Below, piece after piece: positions 32,901 through 38,351 of a stretch of DNA of 64,000 nt. A program made the position numbers. Source of the DNA: Escherichia coli (GTDB lineage Bacteria > Pseudomonadota > Gammaproteobacteria > Enterobacterales > Enterobacteriaceae). The DNA is taken from the NCBI RefSeq assembly GCF_016903815.1, contig NZ_CP069973.1; one strand, 5' to 3'. The first letter of the stretch is position 1, and each line of letters begins with the position of its first letter.

Positions 32901-35900
32901 ACAGGTGCGCGCTTTCACGTATGACCCGCAGCACCCGGGCCGGATGGTGGGGCACCGTTATGCGGGAAGGCCGGAGATGCGCTACCGCTACGACGATGCG
33001 GGGCGGGTGGTGGAGCAGCTGAACCCGGCAGGCCTGAGTTACCGCTACCAGTATGAGCAGGACCGCATCACCGTCACCGACAGCCTGAACCGGCGAGAGG
33101 TGCTGCATACAGAAGGCGGGGCCGGGCTGAAGCGGGTGGTGAAAAAAGAACTGGCGGACGGCAGCGTCACGCACAGCGGGTATGACGCGGCAGGAAGGCT
33201 CACGGCGCAGACGGACGCGGCGGGACGGCGGACAGAGTACGGTCTGAATGTGGTGTCAGGCGACATCACGGACATCACCACGCCGGACGGGCGGGAGACG
33301 AAATTTTACTATAACGACGGGAACCGGCTGACGGCGGTGGTGTACCCGGACGGGCTGGAGAGCCGCCGGGCGTATGATGAGCGGGACAGGCTGGTATCGG
33401 AGACATCGCGCAGCGGGGAGACAGTACGCTACCGCTACGATGACGCGCACAGTGAGTTACCGGCGACGACAACGGATGCGACGGGCAGCACCCGGCAGAT
33501 GACGTGGAGCCGCTACGGGCAGTTGCTGGCGTTCACTGACTGCTCGGGCTACCAGACCCGTTATGAATACGACCGCTTCGGCCAGATGACGGCGGTTCAC
33601 CGCGAGGAAGGTATCAGCCGTTACCGCCGCTATGACAACCGTGGCCGGTTAACCTCGGTGAAAGACGCACAGGGCCGTGAAACGCGGTATGAATACAACG
33701 CCGCAGGCGACCTGACTGCCGTTATCACCCCGGACGGCAACCGGAGCGAGACACAGTACGATGCGTGGGGAAAGGCGGTCAGCACCACACAGGGCGGGCT
33801 GACGCGCAGTATGGAGTATGACGCGGCAGGACGTGTCATCAGCCTGACCAACGAGAACGGCAGTCACAGCGACTTCAGCTACGATGCGCTGGACCGGCTG
33901 GTACAGCAGCGCGGCTTTGACGGGCGGACGCAACGTTACCACTATGACCTGACCGGAAAACTCACGCAGAGTGAAGATGAGGGGCTTGTCACCCTCTGGC
34001 ACTACGACGAATCGGACCGTATCACTCACCGCACGGTGAACGGCGAACCGGCAGAACAGTGGCGGTATGATGGCCACGGCTGGCTGAGAGAAATCAGCCA
34101 CCTGAGCGAAGGCCACCGTGTTGCCGTCCACTATGGCTATGACGATAAGGGCCGTCTGACCGGGGAGCGCCAGACGGTGGAGAACCCGGAGACGGGGGAA
34201 CTGCTGTGGCAGCATGAGACGAAACAGGCATACAACGAACAGGGGCTGGCAAACCGCGTCACGCCGGACAGCCTGCCGCCGGTGGAGTGGCTGACCTACG
34301 GTAGCGGTTATCTGGCGGGCATGAAGCTGGGCGACACGCCGCTGCTGGAGTACGCGCGCGACCGCCTGCACAGAGAAACGGTGCGCAGCTTTGGCAGCAT
34401 GGCAGGCAGTAATGCCGCATACGAACTGACCAGCACATACACCCCTGCAGGCCAGTTACAGAGCCAGCACCTGAACAGCCTGGTGTATGACCGTGACTAC
34501 GGGTGGAATGACAACGGCGACCTTGTGCGCATCAGCGGCCCGCGACAGACGCGGGAATACGGCTACAGTGCCACGGGCAGGCTGGCGAGTGTACGCACCC
34601 TCGCACCGGACCTGGACATCCGCATCCCGTATGCCACGGACCCGGCGGGCAACCGGCTGCAGGACCCGGAGCTGCACCCGGACAGTACACTCACGGCGTG
34701 GCCGGATAACCGCATCGCGGAGGATGCGCACTATGTCTACCGCCACGATGAATACGGCAGGCTGACGGAGAAGACGGACCGCATCCCGGCGGGTGTGATA
34801 CGGACGGACGACGAGCGGACCCACCACTACCACTACGACAGCCAGCACCGCCTGGAGTTCTACACGCGGATACAGCATGGCGAGCCACTGGTCGAGAGCC
34901 GCTACCTCTACGACCCGCTGGGACGGCGAATGGCGAAACGGGTATGGCGGCGGGAGCGTGACCTGACGGGGTGGATGTCGCTGTCGCGTAAACCGGAGGT
35001 GACGTGGTACGGCTGGGACGGCGACCACCTGACGACGGTGCAGACCGACAGCACACGTATCCAGACGGTATACGAGCCGGGAAGCTTCACACCGCTCATC
35101 CGCATCGAAACAGACAACGGCGAGCGGGAGAAAACGCAGCGGCGGAGCCTGGCGGAGAAGCTCCAGCAGGAAGGGAGCGAGGACGGACACGGCGTGGTGT
35201 TCCCGGCTGAACTGGTACGGCTGCTGGACAGACTGGAGGGGGAAATCCGGGCAGACCGCGTGAGCAGTGAAAGCCGCCAGTGGCTGGCACAGTGCGGGCT
35301 GACGGTGGAGCGGCTGGCGACACAGATAGAGCCGGTTTATTTACCTGAGCGAAAAATTCATCTTTACCACTGTGACCACCGGGGGCTGCCGCTGGCGCTC
35401 ATCAGCGAAGACGGCAATACGGCGTGGAGCGGGGAGTATGATGAGTGGGGAAACCTGCTGAATGAGGAAAACCCGCATCACCTGCACCAGCCGTACCGTC
35501 TGCCAGGGCAGCAACACGATGAGGAGTCAGGGCTGTATTATAACCGGAACCGGTACTACAATCCGTTGCTGGGACGATATATTACTCAGGACCCGATTGG
35601 GCTGGCGGGGGGATGGAGTCTGTATGCGTATCCGCTGAATCCGGTGAATGGTATTGATCCATTAGGGTTAAGTCCTGCAGATGTAGCGTTAATGCGAAAA
35701 AAAGAACAACTAAACCATCAAAGAGCATGGGATATATTATCTGATACTTATGATGATATGAAGAGATTAAATTTAGGTGGGACTGATCAATTTTTCCATT
35801 GTATGGCATTTTGTCGAGTGTCTAAATTAAATGACGCTGGTGTTAGCCGATCAGCGAAAGGGCTGGGTTATGAAAAAGAGATTAGAGATTACGGGTTAAA

Positions 35901-38351
35901 TATGTTCGGTATGTACGGCAGAAAAGTAAAGTTATCCCATTCTGAGATGATTGAAGATAATAAAAAAGACTTGGCTGTAAATGAACATGGGTTGACATGT
36001 CCATTTACACAAGATTGCTGGTAATGCTGCCAACTTACTGATTTAGTGTATGATGGTGATTTTAAGGTGCTTGCGTGGCTTCCATTTCCATCAGATGTCC
36101 TTCCTGCTCCGCTACTGAAGGCGTGGTGCGTAACGGCAAAAGCACTGCCGGACATCAGCGCTATCTCTGCTCTCATTGCCGTAAAACATGGCAACTACAG
36201 TTCACTTACACCGCCTCTCAGCCCGGTACGCACCAGAAAATCATTGATATGGCCATGAATGGCGTCGGATGTCGCGCCAGTGCACGCATTATGGGCGTTG
36301 GCCTCAACACGGTTTTACGTCACTTAAAAAACTCAGGCCGCAGTCGGTAACCTCGCGCATACAACCGGGCAGTGATGTGATTGTCTGCGCTGAAATGGAC
36401 GAACAGTGGGGCTACGTCGGTGCTAAATCACGTCAGCGCTGGCTGTTTTACGCGTATGACAGGATACGGAGGACGGTTGTGGCGCACGTCTTCGGTGAAC
36501 GCACTCTGGCCACACTGGAGCGTCTTCTGAGCCTGCTGTCGGCCTTTGAGGTCGTGGTATGGATGACGGATGGCTGGCCGCTGTATGAATCACGCCTGAA
36601 GGGAAAGCTGCACGTTATCAGCAAGCGTTACACTCAGCGCATTGAGCGACATAATCTGAATCTGAGACAACATCTGGCAAGGCTGGGACGGAAGTCACTG
36701 TCGTTCTCAAAATCGGTGGAGCTGCATGACAAGGTCATCGGGCATTATCTGAACATAAAACACTATCAGTAAGTTGGAGTCATTACCAGATTGCTCAAAT
36801 AGATGTATTGATTATATTAATCCAGAGCATAAAAAAACGATAAAGGCTTTACAAGATGCTGGCTATCTCAAGTAACATCTCAAAGATGGTAATATTTATT
36901 TTTGCTATTATAATCGTTGTTTTTTTATGCGTGACTACTTATCTTTATTTACACAAAGATGAATCTCTTGTAAGTAAGCATTACATAAACTATATGGCAA
37001 TACCAGAAAGTGATGGGGTTTTTACATGGCTCCCAGATTTTTTTCCGCATGTAGCGGTGGATATATCAATATCCACAAATGTAGAAGATGATTATTTTTT
37101 TTCTTATTTTTCCCTAACAATCGATGATGGGGGGAGGTTTAAGAAAACATTGACGGTGAGGGCCAGGGAACAAGTGGCGAAAATCGTATCAGAGAATGAT
37201 CCAGATACAAAAAAAGTGTGGTGTAAATATGGTAAAATACCAGGGCAAGGGGATAGCGTAAACCTTTTTTTTGTTGGTGAAATTAATGTTACGCATTATT
37301 TTATAACAAATATTGGAGCTGGATTGCCTGATGCTTGTGCAGAGTAATTGCTTGAATTAAGAGTCTATCCCATATCGAAGTCGTCAACTTCGTAGTGAGG
37401 AAAAGTAAAATCCCTGACTGAGAAAAGACATGTCGGCTATTGTGTAAAGCCATATAGCTCAGACGATGAATATCTACTCGTATTCAGTTGTTTATTGAGG
37501 GTGAGTTCCGACCCTGAAACAACAAATAAAATGAATAGTCAGAGAGTTTACATAGAATTGCACTAGTCTTTTACGATATCTGACATTGTGTAATACATAT
37601 TCAGCCATGCATTAATTAAAATGTTTCGTGTTTAATGTGAGTCCCTATCTGAAAATAAATAATCCTTCCGGATTAAAATAAATTCTCGCCGGGAAAGAAA
37701 GAGGAAATAAACCATTAGCGGAAAACCAGCGGCACGCCAGGGTGACATGCCCCAGTACGGCGGCCCGATAGTCCAGGGTTCAGCGGGGGTACTGATAGTC
37801 GCGCCGACTGCATCGAGAACTCCATACAACTTTTTACGGAACGTCACCTGATAAAATTTGTTCAGTATCGTCTTTTGAGATTCTCAAGGTTATGGAGTAA
37901 CCAGACAGAACGGACACCACTGTCGGAGATAAAAACCCCCTGTTTACGCAGCTCGTTGCTGGCCCGGTGCTGACCATGTGTCGGGAAAGCGACGGTGTAA
38001 TCAACAACAGCCTGTTCAGTTGCCTCATCGGTACGGTTCTTAAGGTTAGGAGCGCGGCGACTACGATTAATCTGCACATCCACACCGCCTTCAGCGGCCA
38101 GTTCGCGGTAACGATAAAACGTTTCACGCGAAACGCCCATGATTTTACAGGCTTTTGATACGTTGCTGAGTTCTTCAGCCAGATTGAGCAAACCGGCTTT
38201 GTGTTTGATGACGGGATTGGCAGTATGAAGCATGAGAGTTACCTCTTGTTTTGGATAAGGATTCGACACTCATATCAAAACCGGTAACTCTCAACCTTTC
38301 AAGGCCATGTGTCAGATCAAGTCGCGACTAATACAAATACGTCCCTCATCA

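Follow-up and report, generated by a model that had tools for sequence, protein, structure and literature searches.

The closest described relatives of the toxin tip considered here, the C-terminal domain of an Rhs polymorphic toxin encoded at the rhsD locus in a 64,000-nucleotide stretch of an Escherichia coli genome (NCBI RefSeq assembly GCF_016903815.1, contig NZ_CP069973.1; the whole stretch is called the window below), belong to the Lipocone superfamily, which was defined by Burroughs, Nicastro and Aravind and includes Wnt, serum amyloid A (SAA), TelC, VanZ and PTDSS among its members (10.1101/2025.01.14.632903; eLife 2025, PMC12419801). In that in silico work, prok-SAA is one of the families recruited as tips of polymorphic toxins, including those of type VI secretion system (T6SS) types, and Lipocones are predicted to cleave or exchange phosphate-linked lipid head groups, an activity that has been shown for TelC and PTDSS1/2 only. 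TelC of Streptococcus intermedius (prok-TelC), a lipid II phosphatase, is given as the sole experimentally characterised Lipocone toxin (PMC12419801). An in silico survey of enterohaemorrhagic E. coli (EHEC) had already pointed out in 2020 a resemblance between the RhsD (z0651) C-terminus and human SAA1, and PF00277, the Pfam SAA family, was carried by seven PAAR-Rhs proteins in that survey (PMC7216683). We found that the 142-aa tip in the window is a bacterial serum-amyloid-A-like domain of the prok-SAA family, Lipocone superfamily, and that the tip and the protein encoded directly behind it are a catalogued and widespread pair, not a new kind of toxin.

The original prediction had left the tip unassigned to any toxin family. 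Taken alone, the tip (in its 142-aa form, restored by removal of an insertion sequence as described below) matches Pfam SAA weakly (independent E-value 2.6e-4), reaches SAA in the PDB only at E 0.18 by phmmer, matches no family in an NCBIfam scan and recovers close E. coli and Hafnia relatives only in word-indexed single-sequence homologue searches. Because these single-sequence searches were weak, a family profile was needed for the assignment to SAA. When a profile of the close relatives was run on 1.84 billion representative proteins, it returned 116 clusters, most of which are C-terminal tips behind Rhs-type DPxGL core ends, and the family alignment comprised 66 sequences that are 23-55% identical to the tip. 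Pfam SAA is matched by 47 of these 66 members at E<=1e-3 (best 1.5e-26), and the 66-member profile finds solved SAA chains in the PDB at E 3.6e-16 to 2.5e-8, with no non-SAA match below E 0.1. The AlphaFold2 (AF2) model of the tip (predicted local distance difference test 96.7, predicted TM-score 0.89) consists of six helices (residues 2-33, 39-51, 56-78, 90-108, 116-123 and 129-137). A Foldseek search of the PDB with this model, a check that had been proposed with the original prediction, placed SAA1/SAA3 in the top seven positions (probability 1.00, TM-score on target 0.68-0.74), and the tip is thus assignable. Its hydrophobicity is low (maximum 19-residue Kyte-Doolittle mean 0.55), and a soluble four-helix cone of low hydrophobicity with a fifth helix is what is described for prok-SAA.

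Conservation within the family points to the same superfamily. Across the 66 sequences D39, H43, C44, E70, D100, N104, G107, C116 and C120 are invariant, and M30, C48, D73 and D96 are nearly so (C48 in 65 of 66, D73 and D96 in at least 95%). The conserved positions predicted to form the active site of Lipocones, namely a His in helix 2 (H2), a Glu in helix 3 (H3) and an acidic residue towards the end of that helix, an Asp in helix 4 (H4) with a polar residue downstream of it, and a capping Gly (PMC12419801), map one-to-one onto H43, E70, D73, D100, N104 and G107 of the tip. The likeness to prok-SAA therefore covers the soluble four-helix Lipocone core with its short fifth helix, the conserved His (H2), Glu (H3), Asp/Asn (H4) and Gly cap, the position as a C-terminal polymorphic-toxin tip (T6SS and Rhs types included) and the company of an immunity protein that is anchored by a transmembrane (TM) helix or is a lipoprotein. 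The tip also carries two CX3C motifs, C44/C48 on helix 2 and C116/C120 on helix 5, which may form two disulfides that staple helix 2 to helix 5. This putative staple and the sixth helix set the present clade apart from prok-SAA as described, as neither is mentioned in the parts of the Lipocone paper drawn on here.

Vertebrate SAA1/SAA3 (PF00277; PDB 4ip8, 4q5g, 6pxz, 7zh7) has a homologous fold (profile E 3.6e-16, Foldseek probability 1.0) and shares the motifs ..M+.AN..G.DKYFH.., ..RE..D.. and ..D...D..ANEWG.. with the bacterial family. In contrast to the tip, however, it is a secreted, stand-alone acute-phase apolipoprotein of the host, with no cysteine at the staple positions, no Rhs carrier and no immunity partner.

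Immediately behind the tip lies an intact ybbD-family gene of 163 aa (36856..37347, + strand), which shares 20 nt with the restored toxin gene, from its own ATG (36856) to the toxin stop. Its product is named 'YbbD family protein' in RefSeq (WP_000879780.1) and matches NCBIfam NF011298 over residues 1-163 (373.4 bits, cut-off 326), while Pfam PF26610 (YbbD_head) is precomputed on near-identical and on diverged relatives. The original prediction had described an N-terminal TM helix in this open reading frame (ORF), and hydropathy bears this out (residues ~8-32, maximum 19-residue Kyte-Doolittle mean 3.03). Beyond the anchor, the protein is predicted to form a periplasm-facing alpha/beta domain, modelled as three strands, a long helix and two strands; its alignments contain one near-invariant cysteine (C123) and a frequent C-terminal cysteine. 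The protein does not correspond to Imm-SAA as defined, an alpha-helix plus four beta-strands with four absolutely conserved cysteines.

A YbbD homologue is found directly 3' of the tip in 12 further loci, with gaps of -20 to +49 nt. These comprise every related locus with a tip 34-55% identical to that of the window, plus the 93%-identical L015 (L004, L007, L008/L009, L010, L015, L016 from Snodgrassella, L018 from Aggregatibacter, L019 from Halomonas, L020 from a Burkholderiales metagenome-assembled genome (MAG), L021 from a Lysobacterales MAG and L022 from Xanthomonas), and the paired loci together span Enterobacterales, Pasteurellales, Snodgrassella, Halomonas, Burkholderiales, Lysobacterales and Xanthomonas. 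Hidden Markov model (HMM) E-values of the partners range from 1e-61 to 4e-9, and the most divergent type, that of L007, was confirmed by an HMM built without it (E 4e-8). The related-locus search with a 10-sequence alignment had given 8 loci, and L011 lies outside the partner survey, being too short for a partner to be seen. Downstream DNA could be read at 16 loci, the window included, and at each of them the N-terminus of the partner is either a TM helix or the lipobox of a lipoprotein (LLAAC, LYGC, LVSC, AASC and ISGC among the YbbD partners). The conserved adjacency supports the idea, raised by the original prediction, that the tip and the 163-aa protein behave as a cognate toxin-immunity pair; the pair is not new, as prok-SAA, EHEC RhsD and NF011298/PF26610 had all been named before. 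No link between YbbD and prok-SAA toxins was found in the literature searched, and the present analysis adds it as a candidate immunity family for them.

The partners of the more distant tips of L012, L013 and L014 were also considered as YbbD proteins and rejected, since these lipoproteins do not match the YbbD HMM; the YbbD pairing is therefore specific to a clade and not family-wide. In L013 (473-997) and L014 (~2950-3300, an uncalled ORF), the lipoproteins accompany more SAA-like tips of the CECCC type and share the motif GNTFFYWP..G..VFCHPLF, with no relation to YbbD by HMM. They may correspond to the class called 'LP+Imm-BamE' in the Lipocone paper, or else to another immunity family. 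In L004 (GCA_003324795.1, CP029992.1; 1832-6183), an orphan Rhs-tip array contains, in this order, a fragment weakly matching Ntox16, a DUF6714 protein, the SAA-like tip with its YbbD_head protein, and a TseH-like protein with Imm58, so that several tip/immunity cassettes are stacked behind one Rhs gene. L015 (CASFSC010000074.1) is labelled 'uncultured Alistipes sp.' and carries a K-12-type tip, 93% identical, and a truncated 86-aa ybbD; it looks like E. coli sequence placed in a Bacteroidota MAG during binning, which suggests contamination rather than transfer.

The explanation that probably fits these observations best is that the tip is an SAA-like Rhs toxin acting in the periplasm as a lipid-head-group enzyme, that YbbD is its immunity protein and that IS1 has killed the copy in the window. 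In an intact allele, Rhs autoproteolysis would cut the tip off after the DPLGL motif, and the tip would be delivered to a neighbouring cell, presumably via the T6SS. There it would fold oxidatively in the periplasm, with the two disulfides joining helices 2 and 5, and a pocket lined by H43, E70, D73, D96, D100 and N104 would cleave a phosphate-linked lipid head group. The likeliest substrate, by analogy with TelC, would be an undecaprenyl-(pyro)phosphate carrier such as lipid II, whose cleavage would block cell-envelope synthesis, whereas YbbD, anchored at the periplasmic face of the inner membrane, would bind and block the tip. For this enzymatic sequence of events, from release and periplasm entry through oxidative folding and head-group cleavage to the block by YbbD, our preference is only slight.

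TelC, the sole characterised Lipocone toxin, serves as the template for this mechanism. As is proposed here for the tip, TelC shows activity outside the cytoplasm only, and the immunity protein that neutralises it is extracytoplasmic and associated with the membrane (PMC12419801). It belongs, however, to another Lipocone clade, is delivered by the type VII secretion system as an LXG protein in a Gram-positive host and is paired with an unrelated immunity protein, TipC, and no match to TelC was obtained in the sequence or fold searches with the tip. A periplasmic site of action is proposed because the twin CX3C is invariant or nearly so, because the partners are TM proteins or lipoproteins, and because TelC acts outside the cytoplasm only; in the parts of the Lipocone paper used here, the immunity proteins of prok-SAA toxins are likewise TM proteins or lipoproteins predicted to act in the periplasm (PMC12419801).

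These same features bear on the idea that the toxin acts in the cytoplasm, as a nuclease or metabolic toxin for instance, and that the 163-aa ORF has nothing to do with immunity. Rhs tips often act in the cytoplasm as nucleases, deaminases or ADP-ribosyltransferases, and Pfam Peptidase_C7 gives a marginal match to the tip (E 0.034). Against this, neither a nuclease nor another enzyme family was matched by the tip in the family, profile and fold searches, its four (near-)invariant cysteines are set as a twin CX3C, the partner protein is predicted to be exported or membrane-anchored in every readable locus, and the adjacency of YbbD is kept across bacterial orders. We therefore give a cytoplasmic toxin almost no credence.

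The homology to an apolipoprotein raises another alternative, namely that the amphipathic helical tip inserts into the membrane or extracts lipid from it and so permeabilises it without catalysis. SAA binds lipid and retinol, one of the Foldseek matches (6py0) is SAA3 with retinol, and the immunity protein is membrane-anchored, all of which would suit such a membrane disrupter. The low hydrophobicity of the tip speaks against it, as does the fact that the invariant residues are polar or acidic and cluster at the predicted pocket, with no hydrophobic face; moreover, pore-forming toxins are usually paired with multi-pass immunity proteins. We regard this explanation as very improbable.

A more substantial competitor to the lipid-head-group enzyme is suggested by the BteO-BtiO pair of Bacteroides fragilis (PNAS 2025, PMC12541434; PDB 9UU0). 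BteO is reported as a non-enzymatic OmpA binder that acts in the periplasm, as its immunity protein does, and its toxicity and OmpA binding need R143/H144, H167/E168 and D187/D191 in a helical groove (PMC12541434). This xH...xE...DxxxD pattern appears to resemble F42-H43 ... K69-E70 ... D96xxxD100 of the tip, and human SAA has been reported to bind E. coli OmpA (cited in the Met-SAA section of PMC12419801). The tip could accordingly be an envelope binder that kills through the periplasmic, C-terminal peptidoglycan-binding domain of the OmpA family, with the H/E/D groove as a binding surface. BteO differs from the tip in having an N-terminal TM helix of its own and no Rhs carrier, and BtiO is an OmpA_C mimic with a signal peptide. 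Against such a binder, the family profile has no detectable sequence match to BteO (9uu0) even at E<=10, and YbbD is not an OmpA mimic. In addition, the His, Glu, Asp and Asn residues are absolutely invariant over the 66 sequences in spite of their low identity, which is more typical of catalysis, and the 'non-enzymatic' verdict on BteO rests on tests of peptidoglycan hydrolase and amidase activity only (PMC12541434). Overall, we consider a non-enzymatic binder unlikely.

That the E. coli SAA-like Rhs tip and BteO are relatives with one common H/E/DxxxD pocket is likewise doubtful, although a little less so. If they are, one outcome would be that prok-SAA toxins, and by descent vertebrate SAA, act through OmpA-family binding, which would explain the long-known SAA-OmpA interaction; the other would be that BteO and SAA are lipid-carrier phosphoesterases whose activity was missed. 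A restored rhsD-tip/YbbD pair would then be a tractable genetic model in E. coli for the activity of the SAA fold, with YbbD as a new immunity family.

Several points weigh against a T6SS-delivered prok-SAA enzyme neutralised by YbbD. The sNxxGR motif on helix 4 of the SAW clade reads VNEHGL in the tip, with the Asn and Gly invariant and the Arg absent or variable in the alignment, a difference from prok-SAA as described (PMC12419801). The immunity families listed for prok-SAA in the parts of that paper drawn on here are Imm-SAA (four conserved cysteines) and Imm-BamE, and YbbD is not among them, whereas YbbD_head is found here and in the 12 related loci. The disulfide pairing was deduced solely from the i/i+4 spacing on two predicted helices. 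The Pfam PAAR_motif in the N-terminal region of the Rhs protein is weak (E 0.11), and no T6SS gene stands beside the Rhs gene at its immediate flanks (ybbP, ylbG/mnmH; the remaining window was not scanned). Finally, no biochemical or genetic study of YbbD or of a prok-SAA toxin turned up in our literature search, so that the toxicity, the substrate and the neutralisation proposed here are all inferences.

The element itself is the rhsD-locus Rhs polymorphic toxin of E. coli, sited between ybbP and mnmH (gene order in the window ybbA-ybbP, Rhs gene, ylbG fragment, mnmH, allS, allA). The Rhs ORF as present in the window (31897..36024, + strand) begins with a core (31897..35670, + strand, supported by NCBIfam, Pfam and GC content) made up of an N-terminal PAAR-like/DUF6531 region, a YD-repeat shell and the core end DPIGLAGG...DPLGL. 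Residues 1-1258 match NCBIfam RHS_core with 2711 bits, Rhs_assc_core and YD repeats are also matched, and Pfam DUF6531 is strong in the N-terminal region (E 1e-18). The core-end motif and the tip peptide quoted in the original prediction are as given there, and the abrupt switch from GC-rich to AT-rich DNA that it described was confirmed: the motif finishes at 35670, the tip begins at 35671, and the GC content changes from about 0.64 to 0.35 right after DPLGL. In 300-nt windows, GC is 0.59-0.69 over the core, 0.42 and then 0.35 over 35550-35999, and 0.31-0.37 over 36750-37650, with an island of 0.50-0.56 between the two AT-rich stretches that corresponds to IS1. A YD-repeat shell, a DPxGL core end and a tip of different composition are what is expected of an Rhs polymorphic toxin.

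The tip gene of the window is interrupted by this 768-bp IS1 (36020..36787, + strand, same orientation as rhs), which was recognised by its terminal inverted repeats (25 nt, 88% complementary), its length, its ORFs (insA, 36075-36350, + strand; insB frame, 36269-36772, + strand) and the RefSeq annotation 'IS1 family transposase'. It is flanked by an 8-bp target-site duplication, AGATTGCT, at 36012..36019 and again at 36788..36795. The first part of the tip (35671..36019, + strand, supported by Pfam SAA, the profile and GC content) encodes tip residues 1-116 and the first base of codon 117, and holds helices H1-H4 with D39, H43, C44, C48, E70, D73, D96, D100, N104, G107, C110 and C116. The second part (36796..36875, + strand, supported by the reconstruction and the AF2 model) runs from the remainder of codon 117 to K142 and the stop TAA at 36873-75; it covers the invariant C120 together with the two final helices and is severed from the gene by IS1. 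The insertion splits the S117 codon and creates a premature stop (TGG TAA, 36019-36024), so that the product ends in ...TQDCW*. Excision in silico of IS1 and one copy of the duplicate restored a 1400-aa Rhs protein with a 142-aa tip and the stop at 36873-75, which confirmed the 26 reconstructed residues of the original prediction, and the same tip reading frame is present, uninterrupted and identical, in strain M114 (L001). IS1 thus lies between C116 and C120, and it both shortens the toxin by 26 residues and parts it from ybbD. The toxin copy in the window is very probably inactive, because the insertion removes the invariant C120, the last 26 residues and the last two helices; the original prediction had alluded to a disruption without drawing the consequence that the toxin gene is interrupted and its product probably inactive. 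The intact ybbD may persist as stand-alone protection. A promoter/terminator scan of 35600-37900 found sites no commoner than in shuffled sequence and was uninformative on ybbD expression downstream of IS1.

The IS1-bearing arrangement recurs exactly in 114 complete E. coli genomes, whereas IS1-free tip plus ybbD DNA was found in 2866 of 5426, a count that pools tips on full-length genes with orphan tips. Identity was at least 99% in 531 of these genomes and 95-99% in 2320. With DNA for tip and ybbD in about half of the complete E. coli genomes, the novelty once attributed to the pair is not borne out. Strain M114 has the arrangement without IS1 at 99.9% identity; its tip forms part of a full-length protein annotated as 'RHS element core protein', and a 'YbbD family protein' comes next. 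Because the IS1-free version is present in other E. coli genomes such as M114, the arrangement of tip and partner is not due to chance. A search of plasmids for the tip/partner DNA returned mislabelled chromosomes only.

The rhsD-ybbC-ylbH-ybbD region of K-12 occupies the same chromosomal site, and its tip plus partner DNA is 95.8% identical to that of the window. In K-12, however, the main rhsD bears another tip and is accompanied by ybbC; the SAA-like tip is present there as an orphan fragment that has no promoter (the ylbH-ybbD remnant), and ybbD is split into pieces of 86 and 57 codons. In the window, by comparison, the full-length gene carries the SAA-like tip and ybbD is undamaged, while the tip is cut by IS1. 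The K-12 ybfO/ybfC genes, the orphan pair of rhsC, were considered as a paralogue and rejected, as the sequences are unrelated.

For genome annotation, the locus is an ordinary, widespread E. coli Rhs tip and partner that was knocked out by IS1 in the lineage of the window. Its wider value is that of a lead, since the toxin family shares homology with vertebrate serum amyloid A, a protein whose activity at the molecular level has been unclear for decades, and H43, E70, D73, D96, D100, N104, the twin CX3C and the periplasm-facing partner YbbD offer handles for experiments in E. coli. The additions of the present analysis are modest and consist of the conserved YbbD pairing, the putative twin CX3C staple and the BteO/OmpA lead.

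The end of the Rhs element is marked by a remnant of another rhs gene start (37717..37791, + strand, 25 codons), in which 24 of 25 residues are identical to residues 2-26 of the Rhs protein at 31897; its ATG is changed to ATT, it continues into unrelated DNA, and it is annotated in RefSeq as an incomplete hypothetical protein in both M114 and K-12. The element is bounded by a ylbG helix-turn-helix pseudogene fragment (37862-38269, - strand), a 135-aa ORF that matches only the first ~112 positions of an IS481-family transposase model (86 bits, where the cut-off is 224). Upstream of ybbA-ybbP, a giant ORF of 5558 aa (11-20025, + strand) encodes tandem adhesin repeats stabilised by Ca2+ as well as a type I secretion C-terminal target domain; it is followed by genes for an LssB-type ABC transporter of the type I secretion system (834 bits) and an HlyD adaptor (322 bits), which together form a large RTX-like adhesin export locus.

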